From positions 5,639 through 69,638 of the forward strand of contig CACXUB010000005.1 in NCBI GenBank assembly GCA_902770735.1: 64,000 nt of DNA. Direction: 5' to 3'. Numbering within the stretch: the stretch's first letter is position 1; each line of letters begins with the position of its first letter. The DNA comes from an uncultured Bacteroidota bacterium. GTDB lineage: Bacteria > Bacteroidota > Bacteroidia > Bacteroidales > WCHB1-69. The notes below the pieces were generated by a model. The model was not told where the DNA came from. It saw nothing but the letters and a program-made list of their open reading frames with translations, and ran no database searches. This document shows, piece after piece, positions 4,798 to 37,509 of the stretch. The position numbers were made by a program, and so were the translations under genes.

Positions 4798-6078
4798 ATG
4801 AACCAACGAATTACAACCCCATATATCAAAAAAAACGGTCGAATGGAAGAAGCCTCATTTGAGGAGGCATTTGCGTTTGTAGCGCAGAGAATCCAGACAG
4901 CCAAACCTAACAGCACGCTGGTGATGAGCTCTGGCAGTTACTCCAACGAGACACTTTACCTGCTACAGCGGTTGGCTCGTACAACATTGAATACTAATGC
5001 TTTAGGTCCGTTTGACTACTATCGGCGCGGCACGGATTTCTTCGCCGACAAGAACGACATTCTGCCGTTCGCGGAGATGTTTTCCTCCGACAAATTCTAT
5101 TGCATGTTCCCGAATGTAGAGACCTCGGAAACGTTGAAGGCCGTTTTCGAGATCCTGAAACACTGTCCCGACACCCCGCGCTACTGGTTCAATACCCCTG
5201 ATACATTGAACATTACCGACTATTACGCCTTCTTCCGCAGCGTCAATTTCTACCTGATCCAACACCATTTGGAGAAGGGCATCTACGTGGAGGTTTTGGG
5301 TAAGAATTATGGGGCTTATAAACAGGCCTTATTGGCGGATGACTATGAAGCTCTTCTGCAAAAGAACAGCTTGCAAAACATTGATATACAGAAATTTGTT
5401 GACGATCTAATAACGGTTCACACACCCGCGTTTATTATGTGGGAGCGTTGGCTGACGGAGCAGGCCTATCACGAGTTGGAAAACCTCTGCATGTTACTCG
5501 ATGTGCAGTCGAAGCCGGCGGCGGGATTCCTCACCATCAAAAGCGAGTTGAACAGCCAGGGATTGTTCGACATGGGGATGTTCCCGCATATCGCACCGGG
5601 CGGTCACGCGCTGGACGAGACGATGCGGCAGAAGATGGAAGGCGTGTTGGGGACGGCCGTCTGTGCAGAGCCGATAGATGTACCCGCCATCCTCGACCGA
5701 GCCGGCTTCCGCAACGTCCTGCTTTGGAACGCGCTCAATGTGGAGATTTCGCAAGATATTATCAATCAATTGGATAAGGCGGATTTTTCGGTTTTGCACA
5801 CCGCTTTTATGCCCGAGAACGCCGACCTTTACAATGTGATTCTGCCCGCCAACCTTCCCGAGGAACTTTCCGGCACCTATACGGATACCTCCAAAGTGCC
5901 GCACAACTTCGTGTCTGACGTGAAAGATCCGTTGGAATACAACAACTTACAGCAAATCGCGGAATTGGCAGAACGCCTCGGACACACCTTCCCGAACGAC
6001 AAGGATGAGGTTTTCCTCGAATACATCTCCTTCATGGAAGCCGGCTGCCACAGCGCGGAACGGCATTTCTTCAAATGA
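4798..6078 (+). CDS. molybdopterin-oxidoreductase-fold protein (NuoG/FdhA-like), apparently without an Fe-S Cys motif
   Basis: N-terminus ASFEEAFAFVAQRIQTAKPNSTLVMSSGSYSNETLYLLQRLARTTLNTNAL matches the characteristic start of the molybdopterin oxidoreductase domain. I see no CxxCxxxC cluster motif. Confidence 0.55.
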   Translation: MNQRITTPYIKKNGRMEEASFEEAFAFVAQRIQTAKPNSTLVMSSGSYSNETLYLLQRLARTTLNTNALGPFDYYRRGTDFFADKNDILPFAEMFSSDKFYCMFPNVETSETLKAVFEILKHCPDTPRYWFNTPDTLNITDYYAFFRSVNFYLIQHHLEKGIYVEVLGKNYGAYKQALLADDYEALLQKNSLQNIDIQKFVDDLITVHTPAFIMWERWLTEQAYHELENLCMLLDVQSKPAAGFLTIKSELNSQGLFDMGMFPHIAPGGHALDETMRQKMEGVLGTAVCAEPIDVPAILDRAGFRNVLLWNALNVEISQDIINQLDKADFSVLHTAFMPENADLYNVILPANLPEELSGTYTDTSKVPHNFVSDVKDPLEYNNLQQIAELAERLGHTFPNDKDEVFLEYISFMEAGCHSAERHFFK

Positions 6079-28679: not shown

Positions 28680-29255
28680 TCAGGGATTCTTTATACAGAT
28701 TTTCGTCAACCCTCCCTTTTTGCCCATCACGAAGAGGGCGTTTTCTTCATTCGGTTCGGGGATGTGGACAAAAAGAGGCTCGTGCAGGGTGAACTGGTCG
28801 CAAAGGAACACTTCTCCCTGTTTCAATTTGGCATTTTCAGACGTCAGGATCACAAAACGTTGGTCACCTTGAAAAGCGGCGACACAGCGGCGGTTGGGGT
28901 TCCAGAAGAACTCCACCTGTGCACCCACAGGGAGGTTTTCCGCATACAAGGTTTCGCTCTTCACGCGGTGCGACGATTGCACACTTTCCACCTCGCAGTA
29001 GTCTGACACGAAGGTCTCCCAGTCGGGGAAACCGGTGAAGCGGGCGAGAATGTCGAGGGTGCTGGAGCGCACCGAGGCATAGCCATCCACATAGCCCCAG
29101 AGCCGCTTCAGCGTGGAAACGCTGAGGTTCTCATTCAGCCGTCCCCGAATCTCTCCCGACAGGAAGATGAAGTCGTTGGAGGTTTCAATACGGTGATCCG
29201 CCGACTCCTCCACGAGTTGGCGCAGCAGGGTGATATGTTGCAGATTAACAGGCAT
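28680..29255 (-). CDS. hypothetical protein (HTH-like N-terminal segment, beta-rich C-terminal half)
   Basis: 191 aa, ATG start, own -7 box 21 nt upstream. The LSVSTLKRLWGY segment resembles an HTH recognition region. No family recognised. Confidence 0.55.
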   Translation of the reverse strand: MPVNLQHITLLRQLVEESADHRIETSNDFIFLSGEIRGRLNENLSVSTLKRLWGYVDGYASVRSSTLDILARFTGFPDWETFVSDYCEVESVQSSHRVKSETLYAENLPVGAQVEFFWNPNRRCVAAFQGDQRFVILTSENAKLKQGEVFLCDQFTLHEPLFVHIPEPNEENALFVMGKKGGLTKICIKNP

Positions 29256-29341: not shown

Positions 29342-31060
29342 TTATTTGGGAACATCTTGTACGAGGCGGACACTCATTCCGTAAAGTCGATAAGTGTAGC
29401 TTTTGGGATCCACGCCTACTTCGCTAAACGCCCAGTCGTATGCACAAGCGTTGTTATAAGCGGTTGAACACCAATAATGTCCAGTCCCAGGAATCCATTC
29501 CAAACCACCTCGAGCACCCGCCTCGGGAAGGAACACGGCACCGGCATCTTCCATCTTTTTCCATTGTGACACACTATAGTTGATCGTGTATTTTGCCGTG
29601 TCAATGTTGATTTTTTCCGGCAAAGCGATGTCGTCGGGATGTTGGTATTGGTCTGGAAAAAGAACAAGGCCTAGCACACCGTTCACAATGGCTTTGACAA
29701 AACGTGCGTTTGGAATGCCTTTCACCGTCGAGGCGTTCCTTGTCTGGCACAAATAGACAGCTTCGTCTTTTGTCAGCGTACGCCATCGTCCGGGCATGTT
29801 TCCTCCGTTGGATATGGCGTTATAGATACCCCAGTCAGCGAAAGCGAAAGAGTCGGTGAGAGAATTTTCCCATTTGCCGCCAGGATAGTACCCTATGTTC
29901 TCAATAGCCCACGAATAGGGCTCATAACTCACCGTACCGCTGTTCCAACCGCTCGTTCCGAAGCCGAAATGGTCGATCCAGTCTTCATAATGGGGGGAAA
30001 TGTTGGCATTTGACATCCCAATGAAGTCATACTGGTTTTCAGCGAAACGCCACGTGCCTTGGGCAATGCCATCGGCGGTGCGATGCTTGCCGGCGGCGCT
30101 ATATTGAAGGTTGCCTTGCGAGAAGCGCACTTGTTTGTCCGGAGCCACGGAGAACACGCCATTTAATGCGCCCGCCAACGGTGAAGAGTCGTCAACGGCA
30201 TGGCGTATCCTATATTCTTCTATTTTGTTGGATATAAATGAGATAGGATGAAGAAACGCACATAACAGTCCAATCAAGATCAATGCCGCCCCTGCAATGA
30301 AAGGCATAGATTTGCGTTTGCAATCTGTTTTTTCAATATTGTGAAGGACTTCTTCAGCAAGCGGGTATCGTTTTTCTTTCTGAGGTTGGAGACATTTGCG
30401 CACTACATTGCCGTAGCGTGTAGGAAACAGTTGCTTCAGAATCAGTCCGAAGGCGTAGAGGTCGGTGCGGTTATCAATCTCGCCGTTGCTTAATTGTTCC
30501 GGGGCGGCGTACGATTGGGTGTAGGCGGGCTCCTTGAGGATGGTGAACGAACGGCTATCGGCAAAGCCGAAGTCGATGATTTTCACGTGGTTTCCATCGT
30601 TTGTAATCAGAATATTGGAGGGCTTCAGATCTTGGTGCACGACTTGTTTCCGGTGATAATAGGCCATTGCCTCAAGCAGTTCCTGCACGATTTGCCGCCG
30701 TACCGTTTCCGATGGGTTCTTCTGCAAGAACTCGTCTAACGTACATCCGTCCACGTATTCCATTACGATGCAGTCGCCGACCTCAGGGTCCTGCTCGATG
30801 ATGAGGGCGCGAACGATGTTGGGATGGGTCAGATTCACCATCAGGGAAAACTCTTTAGAAATCATCGCCGTGTATTGCGGGTCGGCGGCGTACTCCGGTT
30901 TGAGGCCTTTCAGTATGTACTTTTGGCCATATCGTTGTGCACAGAACAGGCGGGAGTAGCCGTTGGAGGGCAGCTCCATATAATCGGTGAAGCGGTTGGA
31001 AACGTTCACGTTCTGCGCCGAGACCGGTCCTGAAGAGGATATGTCGTTGTTGAATTTCAT
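29342..31060 (-). CDS. transmembrane Hanks-type Ser/Thr protein kinase (non-RD) with extracytoplasmic lectin-like domain
   Basis: Catalytic loop VHQDLKPSN (Q replaces the R of HRD), DFGFA, YAAPE. One TM helix (IAGAALILIGLLCAFLHPI, encoded ~30233-30307). Ectodomain contains GNLQY...WRFAENQYDFIG...WRTLTKDEAVYL...YWCST...YGMSVRLVQD. The track start at 31084 is TTG; I prefer ATG 31060. Confidence 0.88.
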   Translation of the reverse strand: MKFNNDISSSGPVSAQNVNVSNRFTDYMELPSNGYSRLFCAQRYGQKYILKGLKPEYAADPQYTAMISKEFSLMVNLTHPNIVRALIIEQDPEVGDCIVMEYVDGCTLDEFLQKNPSETVRRQIVQELLEAMAYYHRKQVVHQDLKPSNILITNDGNHVKIIDFGFADSRSFTILKEPAYTQSYAAPEQLSNGEIDNRTDLYAFGLILKQLFPTRYGNVVRKCLQPQKEKRYPLAEEVLHNIEKTDCKRKSMPFIAGAALILIGLLCAFLHPISFISNKIEEYRIRHAVDDSSPLAGALNGVFSVAPDKQVRFSQGNLQYSAAGKHRTADGIAQGTWRFAENQYDFIGMSNANISPHYEDWIDHFGFGTSGWNSGTVSYEPYSWAIENIGYYPGGKWENSLTDSFAFADWGIYNAISNGGNMPGRWRTLTKDEAVYLCQTRNASTVKGIPNARFVKAIVNGVLGLVLFPDQYQHPDDIALPEKINIDTAKYTINYSVSQWKKMEDAGAVFLPEAGARGGLEWIPGTGHYWCSTAYNNACAYDWAFSEVGVDPKSYTYRLYGMSVRLVQDVPK

Positions 31061-31080
31061 TCCGTGGTAAAAGGCTTTAT

Positions 31081-32202
31081 TCAATCCATGTTCTGCAAAT
31101 ACTCCGACAGATAGGGTACGGCAAACACCAACTCTCCACGACGGGGGGATTCGATAACTCCCGCCTCTATGAGACGCTTGCGATAAGGCTGTATGGCCGG
31201 ACCCTTCCGTCCAAGCTTGGACTGAAGCCTGCTGGTGGTCGCCGGCTCACCGCAGTGAGCAAGTGCCTTAAGGAATACCTTGTCATTGTCTGACAGCGAA
31301 TTCAGTATCGGCTTGAAGACGTTGTCATCCATATCAGCCAAGGCAGCCTTCTTCGCCTTGTCCATAATCTCGTCAGTAACAACGCCATCTTTCGGAGTGT
31401 ATTGAATCATATAGTAGCCAATCAATTGCATGAGATATGGGAAGCCGCGGGTTGAAAGTGCCGCACGGTCGAGTATATCGTCCGAGACCTTTATCTTGAT
31501 TGACTTGAAGGCACGCTCATAATAGGCTCTGATCAAGTTGGTCGATAACGGTCCCAATTCCACTTTGACGGCACGGTTCAGAAAGGTGAGCACACTGTCG
31601 TTAAGTAAATTGGAAATGGAATATGGCAGTCCCGCCATTGCTATCGCAATGTCCTTCCGATCGCCAATCAGTTCCTGATAAGCGGCAGCCACCTCGCGCA
31701 TGGCTGTCGAAGTGCGCACTTCGTCTATGAGGATAAGTGCCCCTTTACCCTTTTCTGCCAACTTATCGCATAGCAATGACATTTTCGAGCGAAATCCATA
31801 TTGCCGTTCTGCTGCTTCTGAAAAAGTCAGACCAAATGAAAACCCGAGCGCACCGGCGGTCACACCCGACAACTTCTTTTTTTCGTCATCGAAGTATTTC
31901 GAACCATTCAGTTGTAATTGCTCGATGATGGCTTTCGGCATCCCCTCGTGAGCCGTCACGCGGGCAACAACGTACCCCTCTTTCTGCGCACGGTCGTTGA
32001 GTTCAAGCAACAGGGCTGTCTTGCCCATGCCTCGTTGTCCGAGAAACAACGTGCAGCGGTTGCGCGACCCTACAGGCTCTTTCAGTCCCGCCATAAACTG
32101 TTCAATCACGCCATCGCGACCGATATATTGCATCGGACGGTTACCGAATGTAGGCTGAAACAGTTTCTGAGCACTTTCATAAAAATCCTCTTTCTTTCTC
32201 AT
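31081..32202 (-). CDS. AAA+ ATPase (Arch_ATPase/ORC-Cdc6-like) with C-terminal winged-helix domain
   Basis: Walker A GQRGMGKTAL and Walker B ALILIDEV. C-terminal wHTH-like LSDNDKVFLKALAHCGEPATTSRLQSKLGRKGPAIQPYRKRLIEAGVIES. Its stop is 0-20 nt from the kinase start, suggesting an operon. Confidence 0.8.
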   Translation of the reverse strand: MRKKEDFYESAQKLFQPTFGNRPMQYIGRDGVIEQFMAGLKEPVGSRNRCTLFLGQRGMGKTALLLELNDRAQKEGYVVARVTAHEGMPKAIIEQLQLNGSKYFDDEKKKLSGVTAGALGFSFGLTFSEAAERQYGFRSKMSLLCDKLAEKGKGALILIDEVRTSTAMREVAAAYQELIGDRKDIAIAMAGLPYSISNLLNDSVLTFLNRAVKVELGPLSTNLIRAYYERAFKSIKIKVSDDILDRAALSTRGFPYLMQLIGYYMIQYTPKDGVVTDEIMDKAKKAALADMDDNVFKPILNSLSDNDKVFLKALAHCGEPATTSRLQSKLGRKGPAIQPYRKRLIEAGVIESPRRGELVFAVPYLSEYLQNMD

Positions 32203-32206
32203 TTAC

Positions 32207-32262
32207 TTTGTTTTATTCTTCTTTATTCTCTTTTATTCTTCTTTATTTTCCTTTATTCTTTT
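32207..32262. repeat. tandem ~9-10-bp repeat TTCTTTATT(C/T) x~6 (purine-rich AAGAATAAA on the transcribed minus strand)
   Basis: Read directly. Forms most of the 5' leader of the ATPase gene. Confidence 0.85.
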
Positions 32263-32269
32263 TCGGATG

Positions 32270-32277
32270 CAAAAATA
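32270..32277 (-). promoter_or_regulatory. -7 box TATTTTTG for the ATPase-kinase operon
   Basis: Exact match on the minus strand, 68 nt upstream of start 32202. The leader consists of a purine-rich tandem repeat. Confidence 0.55.
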
Positions 32278-32333
32278 TAAAAAAGAACGACATGTACATG
32301 CAAAATGGCTTCCCTGTATCTGATTATTTTTCT

Positions 32334-32341
32334 TATCTTTG
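32334..32341 (+). promoter_or_regulatory. -7 box TATCTTTG preceding the structured-RNA candidate
   Basis: Exact match with no protein start nearby. The nested hairpin begins ~12 nt downstream. Confidence 0.45.
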
Positions 32342-32346
32342 CAAGT

Positions 32347-32487
32347 TCGAAACCTGGAAAATTTCAAATGCAATGCCGAGAGGAATCCGAAGATGCTTGC
32401 GGTTCACAGCCGTGAGCTTTCTTTGTTTGGCATTGCAGGTTTTTCCAGGACCTCGGACTCGAAACAATGAAGTTCGCGGTTTTTTTA
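32347..32487 (+). ncRNA. candidate structured small RNA in the divergent intergenic region of the accessory island
   Basis: Own -7 box at 32334-32341. Three nested stems: 32353-32361/32441-32449 (9 bp), 32369-32377/32429-32437 (9 bp), 32395-32402/32410-32417 (8 bp, including two G·U pairs valid only on the + strand). A T7 run at 32480-32486 follows a weak hairpin. Confidence 0.35.
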
Positions 32488-32561
32488 TGCCCTTTTAGAA
32501 AGACTTCGGAAGGCGAGAAAAAGAACCAGAAAAGAACCTAACTGCATGAAAATGAATGTGG

Positions 32562-32569
32562 TATTTTTG
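32562..32569 (+). promoter_or_regulatory. -7 box TATTTTTG for the 1006-aa FISH-domain protein
   Basis: Exact match, 22 nt upstream of ATG 32591. Confidence 0.65.
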
Positions 32570-32590
32570 CAAAATAAAAAATCAAAAGAT

Positions 32591-35500
32591 ATGAATAAGA
32601 GAAAACTTACATTCACAACAATGTTGCTGCTGACCATAGCCTTCGCAATGGCACAAAAACAAACGGGAACTCCTTGTCCAACTTCAGTTTCAGACTATGA
32701 CGGGAATACTTACAATGTGGTTCGGATAGGCGATTTATGTTGGATGAGGGAGAATTTACGTTCTACCCACTATGCCGATGGAACAAGTGTCGATTTTGAA
32801 AGAACAGAAAGTACTATCACAGGATTCTTATATGCTTGGAATGTTGCCAAAGGAATAGAACGAGGCAAACAGGGGGTTTGTCCAGATGGATGGTACTTGC
32901 CCAGCGATTGGGAATGGCAACAAATGGAGATTGCGTCTGGTGCCGTTGACAAAGCATCGGCAAATAAAATGAATAATAGAGGAAACTATGCCTATAAGCT
33001 TTGCAGCAATATAAAAAACGTATGGTCAGAAGGATATTCTAGTAGTTACTATTCAAGCAATCCCTATTATCCTGACGGAAAATGTAATACATCTGGTTTT
33101 AGTGCTTTACCAAATGAAGATGTTGTTTTTTTAGGTGTTATCGTAGGGAAGTGTACAAATTTCTGGACTGCCACAGAATTTGACAAAGACCATGCGCTCA
33201 CTCGACATCTTGAAAACAACAGCAACTCAATTTCTCGAAAAAAAGAAAAAAAATGGAATGCCTATTCTGTGAGATGTGTCTATGGGGCCGAAAATCAAGA
33301 ACAATACGAAGTGGAACGGAATGCAATCTCTGAAGAATCGACCGTAAATCAAATAGACAAACCAATACCAAGCGCTAATACAAACGACAAAGAAATTGAC
33401 ACTACTATATATAAGGTGTATGAAGCGGCAGACACAAGCGATACGTTAGCTATTTATGACAATGGCGATGTCTTGCATAAACTATGGTTGTCATCCATAA
33501 ATAAAAATATTGTCGGTGCTCTAATAAGTCAGCCTGACGGGAGGATTTATCGAGGTTTCTTATACTTAAGAAATGTTAATGAGCCGACAGATATACTGGC
33601 CCGTAAGTCGATAGACTGTCAACATTTGTTAGGTGCATACGAAGTGGGAGATTGGCTTGTAAATGTTGTGTATGCCGATAGCAGTGAGTGGGGGCCGATA
33701 ACGAAGACATGGGAATGTCCTAATTGGCGAAAATCTTCCGATGAAGAAGAAAAATACAATAAAAATTTTTATCTCATTCAGCAGATGCAGGGTCTTAAAT
33801 ATTATTATAAAACCAGTATCACCTTTAATAAAGACGGTACAGGTTACCAGACTTTTACAGTCGCTCCAGAAATCATTGCACAGCAAATATACACTGGTTA
33901 CAGCAATGGAATGACCGGAATGAACAGGAAAACGGGAGGCAGTATTCGAGGTGGCTATAAGTTCACCATTAATGGAAACGCAAAAATTAAATTCAAATGG
34001 TTATATAATAGTGATATAGATGCTTTGGGAATAGAATACGATTCAAAACCCACAATAAACACTACCGCGGCAATGACAGACAAGTTTGAGAAAGTCTATT
34101 TCGCGAACCGTCAACAGCATATAGCACAGGCAAAGCAAGATATAGCAACCAATCCTGAAGTAAAAGAATGGAAAGAGAAGGTCGCGAATGCATTGAAATT
34201 TTTGGCCTATCAGGGGGGGTATCGTTTTTATGGGATAACATTTATTTCTAACCACACATTGAGGCTTGTGCCCAAGTGGTTAGAAGATGATGAGTTGATC
34301 CCTGGAGACGACTGGATTGATTTTTACTCAAAAGACAAAGAAAATTTCTTTATTCCAAGCATAGATGAATTAATGACCTTAACTGATACCAGCACGTTGA
34401 AGCAGTATGAAAGTGAGGAACAAAAGGCGGCTCGCATTGCAGAAGAGAAACGGATAGAGGAGGCGAAACGGATAGAGGAAGAAAAGCGCATCGCAGAAGA
34501 GAAGCGCATCGCGGAAGAAAAAAGAAAATCACAGGCATTATTGTCGACCACATCCTCTTATTGCACGTCGTTGTTTGAAAATCTGCAAAAGTGTATTTCA
34601 GAAAAAACGGGCTATTTTGATTTTTCTGCTTTGGATGAGAGTTTTTACGAGCACTTTGACTTTTCCACATTATTGTCCACGGAGGAAACCACTTCTGCAA
34701 ACAAAGAATCAGTTCTGAATCGAAAATTGTACGCGTGGTTTCCTGTGTCCAACTACAGCCTTGATTCTGCTTTCCTTGTACCCAATGGAGAAGTATGTGT
34801 TATAAGCACACTTAACCGTAAAGAGTCGCCAAAGAATGTGTTTGACACCTATTTGACTTTACGGTTGCCGTTTGCAAACAACTCCACCATATTGATTGAT
34901 TCCATCTCATATAAAACCCAGCTGTGGCAGGATAATTCAGAGAAAAAATATGATATGAGAGAACAAATGATGATAAAAGACCAACTTCTTCTTGGCAAAT
35001 ACAAAAAAATCGCGCCATTTGTCGTGAAAGCCTATTTGAATTATCAAAAGAAAAATCAAATTACCATAAAGAAGCACTACCAGCAATCTGATCCGAATAT
35101 CCGACTGTTTACCATGTACCAAAATCTATATTTGGCCATTGCAAATCTGCGTGAGCACTCTATTGAGAAACAGAAATTCATAAGCACTTATGCCGGTAAA
35201 ACACATGCGGATGTTGTAAAAGTATTGGAATCGTTCATGAAGCAAAAACAAAGTGAATTGTTGCCGGAGAAAGAGATCCAAGATTTGCTCGGGGTTTTGG
35301 GTGTGATTTCAGATACGGAAGAAGAATGTTTGGATTTTCTGATGAATAGGAGAATCGTAGAGGAAAACCATCAGCAGATCAGCTCGAAAAAGAAGACGTG
35401 CAAATATATCGTTGATGCTTACGAAAAACATTTTAAATCGCTTGATCAATCATGGAATCCCTCTGAAAAAAACGATAAATTGGCAGGAGAAAGGGAATTG

Positions 35501-35611
35501 CAATGTAAGGTTCTGTCACTAATCAATAGCACTAATGCATCTGAATTGAATGCTAAAGCCAAACAGATGAAGAAAGAAAGTATTGAAGTAATGATAGAAC
35601 GGTTGAAATAG
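32591..35611 (+). CDS. large secreted protein: N-terminal Fibrobacter-succinogenes-major-paralogous (FISH/TIGR02145-like) domain plus ~750 aa of unknown, partly coiled-coil sequence
   Basis: Signal peptide MNKRKLTFTTMLLLTIAFAMAQ. DGNTYNVVRIGDLCWMRENL...CPDGWYLPSDWEWQQM...SGFSALP...FWTATE...YSVRCVYG. EEKRI tandem repeat present. AT-rich. Start set to ATG 32591, 22 nt after the -7 box. Confidence 0.8.
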   Translation: MNKRKLTFTTMLLLTIAFAMAQKQTGTPCPTSVSDYDGNTYNVVRIGDLCWMRENLRSTHYADGTSVDFERTESTITGFLYAWNVAKGIERGKQGVCPDGWYLPSDWEWQQMEIASGAVDKASANKMNNRGNYAYKLCSNIKNVWSEGYSSSYYSSNPYYPDGKCNTSGFSALPNEDVVFLGVIVGKCTNFWTATEFDKDHALTRHLENNSNSISRKKEKKWNAYSVRCVYGAENQEQYEVERNAISEESTVNQIDKPIPSANTNDKEIDTTIYKVYEAADTSDTLAIYDNGDVLHKLWLSSINKNIVGALISQPDGRIYRGFLYLRNVNEPTDILARKSIDCQHLLGAYEVGDWLVNVVYADSSEWGPITKTWECPNWRKSSDEEEKYNKNFYLIQQMQGLKYYYKTSITFNKDGTGYQTFTVAPEIIAQQIYTGYSNGMTGMNRKTGGSIRGGYKFTINGNAKIKFKWLYNSDIDALGIEYDSKPTINTTAAMTDKFEKVYFANRQQHIAQAKQDIATNPEVKEWKEKVANALKFLAYQGGYRFYGITFISNHTLRLVPKWLEDDELIPGDDWIDFYSKDKENFFIPSIDELMTLTDTSTLKQYESEEQKAARIAEEKRIEEAKRIEEEKRIAEEKRIAEEKRKSQALLSTTSSYCTSLFENLQKCISEKTGYFDFSALDESFYEHFDFSTLLSTEETTSANKESVLNRKLYAWFPVSNYSLDSAFLVPNGEVCVISTLNRKESPKNVFDTYLTLRLPFANNSTILIDSISYKTQLWQDNSEKKYDMREQMMIKDQLLLGKYKKIAPFVVKAYLNYQKKNQITIKKHYQQSDPNIRLFTMYQNLYLAIANLREHSIEKQKFISTYAGKTHADVVKVLESFMKQKQSELLPEKEIQDLLGVLGVISDTEEECLDFLMNRRIVEENHQQISSKKKTCKYIVDAYEKHFKSLDQSWNPSEKNDKLAGERELQCKVLSLINSTNASELNAKAKQMKKESIEVMIERLK
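34430..34527 (+). repeat. in-frame 15-bp tandem repeat encoding (A/E)EKRI(A/E)E x~6
   Basis: Encodes AARIAEEKRIEEAKRIEEEKRIAEEKRIAEEKRKS within CDS 32591..35611. Confidence 0.9.
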
Positions 35612-35677
35612 TATTAATAAAAAAACGAGAAAGCCGATTCGCGTGAAAGGAAGTAGGCAGATAAAAAAATATTTATT

Positions 35678-36295
35678 ATGGGATTTTTAAGTAATATGGC
35701 CGATGAGGCTGGGAAAAAAACAGGTAAGGCAATTGGTAACAAATTATTTGGCAGATATGCTGACGATGTACGAATTGGTTACGGAGAAATTGATGATAAC
35801 GGAGCCTCTTCTGCAAAAGCAGAAGTAAAAATAGCGAAAATCGAGGCTAAAGAAAGAAAAAAAGAACTAAAACTGAAAGAGAAATTTAAAGTAAAAGATA
35901 ATCTTCGTCAACAAATCGCTGAAATACAATCTATCTCTTTTGATACACAAAGTGTTAAAGCTAATATCAATGTTTTAATGCAACTGTCTTCAATCATCGA
36001 AAGTATTGACGAGGACGACATCGGTTCTTCTTGGGATGATGATGAAAATACCCTGCAACAGAAACTTTTGGATTCTGCTGAATCTAAATTAAAGATGGGT
36101 ATTAATCTTTGTAAAGCAATTGACCCAACTGATCCCACCATCACCATGTTTGAAAATGTGATAAAAGAGAAGCAAGAAGTGGCGGAAGAGAAAAAGAGAG
36201 AAGAAAAAAAGAATGACAAACTTGGATTTGGGCTTTTCTTTGGTTCAATTGGACTTATATTATTGATAGCAATCCTTGCATGGATATTTGGATAG
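35678..36295 (+). CDS. hypothetical tail-anchored coiled-coil protein
   Basis: 205 aa, charged/helical (KIAKIEAKERKKELKLKEKFK; QEVAEEKKREEKKNDK), with a single C-terminal TM helix LGFGLFFGSIGLILLIAILAWIFG. AT-rich like the upstream gene. Confidence 0.6.
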   Translation: MGFLSNMADEAGKKTGKAIGNKLFGRYADDVRIGYGEIDDNGASSAKAEVKIAKIEAKERKKELKLKEKFKVKDNLRQQIAEIQSISFDTQSVKANINVLMQLSSIIESIDEDDIGSSWDDDENTLQQKLLDSAESKLKMGINLCKAIDPTDPTITMFENVIKEKQEVAEEKKREEKKNDKLGFGLFFGSIGLILLIAILAWIFG

Positions 36296-36498: not shown

Positions 36499-37509
36499 CT
36501 AAAACCTATTCACCCACTCCGCCACCTCCGTCGCGGAGATGTTCTTCATGCACTTGAAATGCTTGCGGCGGCACTTGGAGCTGCCGAACTTGGAGCACGG
36601 ACGGCAATGGAGCGGACAAACTTCGAAATTGCGGAACAAATTCCGTTCGCCGGGCATATAAGGGTAGTAACCGTATTCGGGAATGGTGGAGCCGAAGATG
36701 GCTGCCGTGGGCTTGTGCAGCGCCGCTGAGATGTGCATCAGGCCGGTGTCGCCGGTGATCACGCAGTCGGCATGCTGCAGGATGGCCGCCGACTGGTAAA
36801 GGGTGTATTTGCCGCAGCCGTTGGTGGCCCGCTCGCCGAGCTGGGAAACCACCTGCTCGCCCTCTTCGAACACGTCCTTGCCGCCTAACAGCATGATCGG
36901 TTTGTGCAGGATGCTGCCGATCTCCACCACCTTGCTCACCGGAATCCGCTTGGTGAAGTGCTGCGCCGCCAACACGATGGCTACGAAGCCGTCTTCAAAC
37001 ATCATCGGCAAATCATCTTCTTCAAATCCTTGGTCTTCAGGAATATAGAATTCCAACCCTTTGTGGTCGTTGTGAACGTTCAAAGCCTTGACGGCCTCGA
37101 AATAACGTTCCACGATGTGCGTTTCGGGCATGCCGTTCATCTTGAGACGATAGCAAATCCATTTCGACAAATTGTGCTTGTTGAAAGTGTAGGAAGGGCA
37201 TTTCAGCTTGCGCACCACCTTGCGGGAACGCATCGTCTTCTGCAAGTCAACGACCACGTCGAAATGCTCTCTTTTCAGCTCTTCGATGGTTTGGTTCACG
37301 TTGTCAGGATCGTAAGCATGCACTTTGTGGATGTGCGGATTGTTCGCAATCACAGAGACATAATCTTTTCTGACCAAAAAATGCACTTCTGCTTCGGGGA
37401 TTTGTTCGTTCACCGCTCTGATAACCGGAGTGGTTAACACGATGTCTCCAATGGAACTAAGTCGGATAATGAGGATTTTCGGTTGCGACGGGGGTTGTAT
37501 TTCGTCCAT
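36499..37509 (-). CDS. glycosyltransferase family 9 (LPS heptosyltransferase-like)
   Basis: KILIIRLSSIGDIVLTTPVIRAV N-terminus and C-terminal GDTGLMHISAAL motif, typical of GT9. Confidence 0.85.
   Translation of the reverse strand: MDEIQPPSQPKILIIRLSSIGDIVLTTPVIRAVNEQIPEAEVHFLVRKDYVSVIANNPHIHKVHAYDPDNVNQTIEELKREHFDVVVDLQKTMRSRKVVRKLKCPSYTFNKHNLSKWICYRLKMNGMPETHIVERYFEAVKALNVHNDHKGLEFYIPEDQGFEEDDLPMMFEDGFVAIVLAAQHFTKRIPVSKVVEIGSILHKPIMLLGGKDVFEEGEQVVSQLGERATNGCGKYTLYQSAAILQHADCVITGDTGLMHISAALHKPTAAIFGSTIPEYGYYPYMPGERNLFRNFEVCPLHCRPCSKFGSSKCRRKHFKCMKNISATEVAEWVNRF

Follow-up and report, generated by a model that had tools for sequence, protein, structure and literature searches.

In the 64-kb stretch of DNA analyzed here (the window), an intergenic sequence that can fold into a long hairpin lies between a p191/kinase defense cluster and a strain-variable operon, towards which it always points in related loci. 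Does this element, which we call R, act as RNA or as DNA, and is it a gene in its own right, a leader of the operon beyond it, a recombination site, or a passive repeat? The first-pass annotation had described a promoter-equipped RNA candidate with three nested stems spanning ~97 nt, and had argued from two G·U pairs in the innermost stem that the element functions at the RNA level.

A four-helix element and the genes around it

The three nested stems of the first-pass annotation all lie where it placed them, the innermost with its two G·U pairs and 7-nt loop, and they fold beyond chance (z -4.1 to -5.9). The ~97-nt extent did not hold, since R is larger and a fourth helix, P1, closes it, giving a hairpin of ~120 nt that scores 134.9 bits against model R2 (Table 1). 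Along the rod, P1 is followed by the AAA/ACC(T) loop, helix P2, the AATTTCAA/AGG loop, P3, a purine-rich loop, and P4. The inner stem of P4 contains two adjacent wobble pairs, U·G and G·U, and carries a variable loop at 32403-32409; a short extension pairs 32388-32393 with 32420-32425, so that the whole P4 region spans 32388-32425 on the plus strand. The plus-strand RNA of 32334-32490 has a predicted minimum free energy of -56.5 kcal/mol (z = -4.1), which 1 of 200 shuffles equaled, and the minus strand of the same segment reaches -42.1 (z = -2.45). The fold of 32340-32464 stands out further, with z = -5.9 and none of 200 shuffles equally good.

Table 1. Positions of element R, its helices, and the neighboring genes and signals in the window.
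Feature	Sequence or motif	Positions	Strand	Remarks
p191 gene		28680-29255	-	191 aa; always next to the kinase gene
p191 promoter	AGAACC-N5-AGAACC; TATTTTTG	29324-29308; 29283-29276	-	24 nt from repeat to box
Ser/Thr protein kinase gene		29342-31084	-	kinase domain resembles PD-T4-6 and mad6 defense kinases
AAA_16-type P-loop ATPase gene		31081-32202	-	first gene of the divergent operon
Box at R	TATCTTTG	32334-32341	+	matches the Bacteroidetes -7 promoter box TAnnTTTG
Element R		32344-32459	+	four-helix hairpin, P1 to P4
Helix P1	AGTTCG / CGGACT	32344-32349 / 32454-32459	+	closes the hairpin; RNAfold minimum free energy structure
Helix P2	CCTGGAAAA / TTTTCCAGG	32353-32361 / 32441-32449	+	outer stem of the first-pass annotation; inverted-repeat listing
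Helix P3	TGCAATGCC / GGCATTGCA	32369-32377 / 32429-32437	+	middle stem of the first-pass annotation; RNAfold
Helix P4, inner stem	GCTTGCGG / CCGTGAGC	32395-32402 / 32410-32417	+	RNAfold
Internal loops of R	AAA/ACC(T); AATTTCAA/AGG; purine-rich loop opposite CTTTC..TTGTTT			conserved
Intrinsic-terminator-like hairpin	ACC-T-CGGACT ... AGTTCG-C-GGT, then T7	32450-32486	+	T7 at 32480-32486
Direct repeat	AGAACC-N5-AGAACC	32522-32538	+	23 nt upstream of the promoter P2 box
Promoter P2, -7 box	TATTTTTG	32562-32569	+	ahead of the FISUMP gene ATG at 32591; ~75 nt past the R terminator
FISUMP-domain protein gene		32591-35611	+	1006 aa; Pfam, NCBIfam
205-aa protein gene		35678-36295	+	second gene of the window's variable operon (32591-36295)
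GT9 gene		36499-37509		right border of the variable segment

R occurs exactly once in the 64 kb of the window with filters off. The Rfam search that had been proposed as a check of the RNA candidate placed R in no family: cmscan against Rfam 15 at E up to 10 gave no match overlapping R in window positions 31000-34000, and at E up to 1 it gave none overlapping R in four loci with diverged R types. We therefore regard the R family as apparently uncatalogued, and new within a known kind of element. Copies of R differ from one another by indels of 1, 4, and 12 nt, and R is therefore not coding; together with the compensatory stem changes between copies, these indels rule out a coding region or a leader peptide.

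Housekeeping genes frame the locus, with Rpe, an MFS transporter, and TrmO on the left and GT9, an acyltransferase, TrkH/TrkA, and MutS2 on the right. Directly upstream of R, the window has no gene on the same strand. The p191 protein has no match in Pfam (E up to 1), NCBIfam, or PADLOC, nothing significant was found by Foldseek against the PDB, and its family is narrow, with 225 database matches that are all unnamed. Its predicted structure (pLDDT 81) combines a five-helix N-terminal half with a beta-rich C-terminal half.

The ATPase gene has a peculiarity of its own. Its leader (32203-32265, minus strand) carries a tandem 10-nt repeat between a TAnnTTTG box at 32277-32270 and the ATG, with units that read GAATAAAGAA and GAATAAAAGA on the coding strand. 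The repeat is present, in ~3 to 10 units, in all 44 loci with ATPase homologues, down to 66% identity; the position is equivalent in L007-L050, contig breaks fall within it in several cases, and one contig has a run of N at this point. Such an array could be a translation enhancer, a set of protein-binding sites, or a copy-number switch. A pairing of CTTTGTTT in R with this leader was dismissed as an effect of composition, as the leader is not conserved there and the ATPase is missing from most loci with R.

Covariation in a family that accompanies p191 and the kinase

Homologues of the AAA_16 ATPase served as bait for 44 genome loci, the closest of them from uncultured rumen and gut Bacteroidales MAGs. 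By blastn and nhmmer, R was found in only the six closest, several of which hold two or three copies. The other 38 loci (66-84% identity), from other lineages, lack R, and the DNA upstream in them is unrelated, which rules out a tie between R and the ATPase; R therefore goes with p191 and the kinase. Diverged types of R were reached through homologues of the kinase that directly precedes one R copy, so that loci were chosen without regard to R. All 11 loci that were fetched by kinase homologues alone (47-65% identity) and included enough downstream DNA contain a copy. The constant companions of R are thus p191 (~190 aa) and the Ser/Thr kinase, and among the fetched loci every R copy found adjoins a p191/kinase locus and none is dispersed.

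Altogether, 61 copies were found in the 87 sources searched, all of them from uncultured rumen or gut Bacteroidales. They fall into at least six sequence types: the window type, L080/L084a, L070/L077, L055/L076/L078, L084b, and L082/L089, where L-numbers (L007, L055, and so on) label the related loci compared with the window. Divergence among these types parallels that of their loci, and R exceeds 95% nucleotide identity where the neighboring kinase has 46-73% amino acid identity. A 22-mer from R matches 25 rumen metagenome contigs. The same 22-mer matched no viral contig in IMG/VR, and a distant blastn search with R matched no plasmid in PLSDB, so R is not an obvious plasmid or phage element. 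The conserved unit reaches 9-16 nt past the hairpin on its 5' side only. P1 or the 3' arms are missing in about 14 of 50 distinct copies, and not every copy can therefore be functional.

We aligned the 61 copies with a covariance model that includes P1 and calculated pair statistics on the 50 distinct rows. Fitting the alignment to the model favors the structure; independent folds of single sequences agree with it. In these 50 rows, 94.1% of cells are paired, compared with 85.8% in shuffles, and only 28-43% do so when partners are slid by 1-3 columns. Changes on both sides of a pair occur in 22 of the 32 pairs, a number attained by none of 500 shuffles. The compensatory changes at homologous loci that the first-pass annotation had named as a check are found in all four helices, with double changes at five of six pairs in P1, seven of nine in helix P2, and seven of nine in P3; in the P4 region 99.7% of cells are paired, and the wobble positions alternate between G·U and G-C or A-U. 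Fully compensated variants of P1 read TGAGTCG/CGACTCA, GATACTG/CAGTATC, CACTCG/CGAGTG, and TAATCGG/CCGATTA against AGTTCG/CGGACT in the window, and P3 appears as ATTACCAC/GTGGTAAT, GTTGCCAC/GTGGCAAC, TTTGCTACA/TGTAGCAAA, and ATTATAATG/CATTATAA. Between types the stems are almost wholly swapped, and the unpaired AATTTC, AGG, ACC, and TTGTTT are invariant or nearly so. Folding each type separately returned the same P1-P4 architecture (z -5.9 to -8.1). The fold of R is thus kept through compensatory mutations and is therefore under selection.

On the plus strand the alignment contains 112 G·U cells and 26 A·C cells, and many of the latter come from truncated copies. The plus strand is the more stable one in nine of nine representatives, by 1.6-13.9 kcal/mol, and a T-run follows the hairpin on its 3' side on the plus strand only. 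Together with covariation in at least six types, these features uphold the earlier argument from G·U pairing, and on sequence grounds we favor an RNA read from the plus strand, ahead of a product of the minus strand or a signal in double-stranded DNA. As an interpretation, the first-pass annotation was right to place R at the RNA level, which the comparative data support; it missed P1, the overlap of P1 with the terminator, and the existence of a multi-copy family at cassette junctions.

Terminator, promoter boxes, and the proposed product of R

The weak hairpin and T7 run reported downstream of the nested stems are indeed present. The hairpin is the stem of the terminator, and its 5' half in the window is the 3' strand of P1, CGGACT at 32454-32459. 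Downstream of complete copies, such a hairpin and a T-run (T6-T7; TTTTG for L082) are seen in all types but one, and the exception, L076, is a mosaic that lacks a proper terminator. In four types (window, L080, L070, and L084b), one strand serves both as the 3' side of P1 and as the first half of the terminator stem; L055 shows an overlap of just 3 nt, and L082/L089, the most diverged type, shows none, its two helices forming together. The second half of the terminator stem repeats the 5' strand of P1, and changes in all three segments are matched to one another (AGTTCG/CGGACT/AGTTCG in the window versus CACTCG/CGAGTG/ACTCG in L084b). With the other state blocked in each case, the P1 and terminator states are 0.5-3 kcal/mol apart in five of the eight sequences compared; L070 and L076 clearly prefer the P1 state. 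These folding models make a P1/terminator switch plausible, and since the overlap is slight in L055 and absent in L082/L089, such a switch would not be universal in the R family.

The consensus of the Bacteroidetes -7 box is TAnnTTTG (PMC7366714). The box reported 12 nt ahead of the stems is present as TATCTTTG, and the earlier description of R as promoter-equipped stands for the window type, in which alone the box is canonical, and fails for the others, in which it is degenerate or absent. At the same position other types read TTTTCTTGG, TTTTCTTAG, TTTTCTTTG, or CGTCTTG, and outside the window type these letters form the T-rich end of a short hairpin, RGCG-TTTT-CGC, that is itself conserved. 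Four loci have no box at all, and in them a kinase gene on the same strand stops just 2 nt before R starts. By the usual box-to-start spacing of Bacteroides promoters, TATCTTTG, if used, would place the start of transcription at ~32344-32348, the first bases of P1, and would give the RNA a paired 5' end. A scan for sigma-70-type promoters was set aside as not informative for Bacteroidetes.

A second signal links R to its neighbors. The repeat AGAACC-N5-AGAACC is found in only three contexts per locus: before p191, before most copies of R, and before promoter P2. The spacer from repeat to box is 23-24 nt at p191 and promoter P2 and 35 nt at R, one helical turn more; at p191, another 20 nt separate the TATTTTTG box from the start codon. 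The window copy of R has no upstream AGAACC repeat. Promoter P2 itself had been correctly recognized as the separate promoter of the large gene, and its box stands between terminator and gene in complete copies of other types wherever the flank was read. The AGAACC-N5-AGAACC repeat looks like a putative binding site of a local regulator, and its three contexts suggest a small regulon of three units, namely p191, R, and the variable operon. A guess would be that p191 is the regulator, with a helix-turn-helix in its N-terminal half that we see by eye and for which Foldseek and Pfam give no support.

The reading that we favor, and hold tentatively, is that R with its terminator (to 32486) is a plus-strand gene for a separate, terminator-ended small structured RNA of ~140 nt. 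Transcription would begin at or just before P1, from the TATCTTTG box in the window and, for most other copies, from a layout like those at p191 and promoter P2, with AGAACC-N5-AGAACC, a spacer, and a -7 box. The RNA would fold into the four-helix rod, its three conserved internal loops being presumed sites of protein contact, and transcription would stop at the T-run. Because P1 and the terminator share one strand, the RNA might either terminate or, with P1 closed, let some transcription continue towards the variable operon. R, p191, and the variable operon would then make up a small local regulon, each as a transcription unit of its own, tied to the Ser/Thr kinase in a defense-type island. 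A separate unit is supported by the terminator directly after R and by the next gene having its own promoter ~75 nt further on. Counting against a small RNA gene are the restriction of the canonical box to the window type, the missing AGAACC repeat of the window copy, the loss of P1 or 3' arms from about 14 of 50 distinct copies, and the absence of a fold or family match for p191 as a putative partner; in the four loci where R follows a kinase stop codon by 2 nt, it would be a 3' untranslated region and not a separate gene.

The closest known counterparts are the intergenic sRNAs of Bacteroides that have a TAnnTTTG promoter and an intrinsic terminator of their own, such as those mapped in B. 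thetaiotaomicron (PMC7366714). R shares with them a site between genes, a -7-type box shortly ahead of the structured part, a Rho-independent-type terminator, and a size of 100-150 nt. R differs from them in its lack of an Rfam match, its multiple copies in one locus, the overlap of P1 with the terminator, and a box that is not conserved family-wide. The intrinsic terminator expected of a stand-alone Bacteroidetes sRNA gene is present after complete copies of R other than L076, and the TAnnTTTG box expected of one is canonical in the window type, degenerate in five others, and absent next to stop codons.

As an alternative to a separate RNA, R might be a cis-acting attenuator or leader whose loops sense a protein or a small ligand, so that a stabilized P1 would block the terminator and allow read-through into the variable operon. 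We consider this possible, if rather doubtful. Upstream transcription could come from kinase or PDC-S01 genes or from a weak promoter of R itself, and the position of R straight after a same-strand kinase gene in four loci suits the leader reading, as does its constant direction towards the variable operon. Riboswitch- or protein-controlled terminator/antiterminator leaders likewise consist of a covarying domain (here 22 of 32 pairs, with 0 of 500 shuffles) in which the closing helix and an intrinsic terminator further on have a strand in common, with two states that are nearly iso-energetic. The doubling of the P1 strand in four types and partly in L055, the joint covariation of P1 and terminator, and the small energy difference in five of eight sequences all fit this pattern. 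A leader would also be expected to have no intervening promoter and a coherent function downstream; at R, however, the complete promoter P2 stands between the terminator and the operon, and the genes beyond range from FISUMP and T9SS surface proteins to radical SAM, SPFH-GYF, and FGE-sulfatase proteins. Given this heterogeneity, there is no common ligand logic. The L082/L089 terminator, which forms beside P1 without overlap, and the clear preference for the P1 state in L070 and L076 also speak against a general switch.

It is less probable, and in our view unlikely, that R is a passive repeat whose stable hairpin shields the 3' ends of mRNAs made upstream and keeps read-through out of the variable operon, with no specific partner. 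REP/BIME, ERIC, and Correia-type repeats are intergenic hairpins that can stabilize transcripts and serve as recombination substrates. R resembles them as a repeated intergenic hairpin, and it lies downstream of kinase or PDC-S01 genes in most loci (in four right past the stop codon), has a terminator next to it, and exists in several copies. Unlike them, it is asymmetric, much longer, equipped with conserved internal loops, and not dispersed, the window having a single copy in its 64 kb and every copy found belonging to a single type of locus; the scattered copies, terminal inverted repeats, and target-site duplication of a dispersed repeat were not found for R in the fetched loci or the 64-kb window. 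A MITE or REP identity was rejected on this distribution. The window copy also has no same-strand upstream gene whose transcript it might protect, and the near-invariance of AATTTC, AGG, ACC, and TTGTTT in the face of fully changed stems is more than a mere stability element needs.

Exchange of operons and defense genes beside R

Copies of R stand 150-280 nt upstream of very different genes in related loci: DUF4143/AAA_14 ATPases, kinase-related genes, FISUMP and T9SS surface proteins, radical-SAM/SPASM/PqqD genes, SPFH-GYF genes, and genes with FGE-sulfatase domains. PADLOC assigns the DUF4143/AAA_14 ATPases to PDC-S01 (E = 1.8e-151), which, like PD-T4-6, is among the most frequent candidate defense loci in rumen genomes (PMC13356809). 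Direct arrays of two or three R copies, 1.6-1.8 kb apart, flank PDC-S01 ATPase genes, and the extra copies beside these insertions are often truncated. A block of R, terminator, AGAACC repeat, and promoter P2 box is more than 90% identical before many unrelated operons, and similarity between loci stops a few bases past the promoter P2 box (32570-32575 in the window, with equivalents in L051-L075). As this end lies at about the expected start of transcription, the exchanged unit would be a whole transcription unit from +1. In L061, the right border is that of the window (GT9, 90% identity) and the 7 kb of genes inside it are another set, so the R block forms the constant left edge of a variable segment.

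Arrangements of this kind recall integrons. Integron attC sites and chromosomal super-integron repeats (VCRs) are imperfect hairpins of ~100-130 nt in direct orientation within variable gene arrays. R shares with attC the length, the direct orientation, a strand-biased fold, and near-identity within an array, and it could accordingly be imagined as a DNA-level recombination site or cassette junction that acts as a hairpin in single-stranded DNA and receives defense genes. The copies around PDC-S01 genes, the mosaic left and right flanks of R, several independent insertions in the 3' part of R or the terminator, and the high conservation of R next to its diverged kinase would all be in keeping with this. 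We nevertheless judge it quite unlikely as the primary role. R lacks an integron integrase, core-site motifs, and a fixed crossover. Pfam searches of the large ORFs at 21.3-44.6 kb found no recombinase, IntI-type or other, and no transposase or reverse transcriptase within 11 kb on either side, and none of these domains was found among the tested cassette genes of related loci. No GTTRRRY or RYYYAAC core site appears in 32334-32490, where the GTT sites read GTTCGAA, GTTCACA, GTTTGGC, GTTTTTC, and GTTCGCG. The repeats end after TCTTTG, before CAAG, after CCAG, after GGCAT, after CAATGA, or after GGACCT, which spreads the breakpoints over no fewer than five sites within the terminator or the 3' part of R, with no single crossover point at the cassette boundaries. 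The terminator and T-run belong to the conserved unit, which also includes a promoter, the "cassettes" carry promoters of their own, and the main variable operon is attached not at R but ~100 nt beyond it, just past the promoter P2 box. The duplicated segment of ~110-175 bp fits homologous recombination between copies and not site-specific exchange. R may thus be a homology stretch for repeated homologous or illegitimate recombination instead of part of a site-specific system, and the multi-copy family at cassette junctions gives some weight to DNA recombination as a secondary role. Because proteins with the FGE-sulfatase fold and kinases occur in R loci, the target hairpin of a diversity-generating retroelement was also considered, and it was rejected for want of a reverse transcriptase in the window or the cassette genes.

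That R is a functionless inverted repeat thrown up by chance in an AT-rich, repeat-rich intergenic region is a negligible prospect against z-scores of -4 to -8, covariation that no shuffle reached, and 61 homologous copies.

A more elaborate version of the favored reading joins the RNA to the exchange. In it, R would be a protein-binding RNA of a kinase-centered defense or conflict island, co-regulated with p191 through AGAACC and coupling p191 and the kinase sensor to the swapped effector operon behind promoter P2, with its copies doubling as homology for the gain and loss of PDC-S01. As a complete package this is improbable; if true, it would represent a new kind of RNA-containing module that organizes a hypervariable immunity locus. 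Retrons and other defense-associated non-coding RNAs have turned out to be central components of the systems they belong to, and to our knowledge covariation-supported structured RNA families that lie outside Rfam and are tied to defense islands are rare. R is the best-conserved piece of a locus with fast-diversifying proteins and sits at the boundary where PDC-S01 genes and strain-variable operons are exchanged. If it is transcribed and bound by a protein of the locus, it may provide a handle on how hypervariable loci in uncultured Bacteroidales are regulated and rebuilt, and even as only a leader or terminator, the R family would be a clean new alignment for RNA databases.

Several smaller features accompany the exchanged genes. 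Downstream of a diverged R copy, inside the variable operon of L055, two matches to the Rfam DUF805b motif, a cis-regulatory RNA, lie on the minus strand (5358-5392 and 5921-5957; 47.8 and 35.6 bits, with a gathering score of 35.6). Upstream of PDC-S01, three or four copies of a TTGCGGA(T/C)AGCGG-like motif are found in L049 (3532-3650), L057 (12490-12640), L053 (9850-9990), and L068 (1886-2030), and a long AT-rich palindrome around TTTAAACCGCAAAAT is found in L080 and L084 (~5007-5151). These motifs and the palindrome may be operators of single-gene PDC-S01 cassettes. Finally, L080 and L081 carry a HipA/HipB-type toxin-antitoxin pair (HTH_3, Couple_hipA, HipA_C) at 1303-2795, between TrmO and p191, a further sign that the site collects defense or conflict genes.
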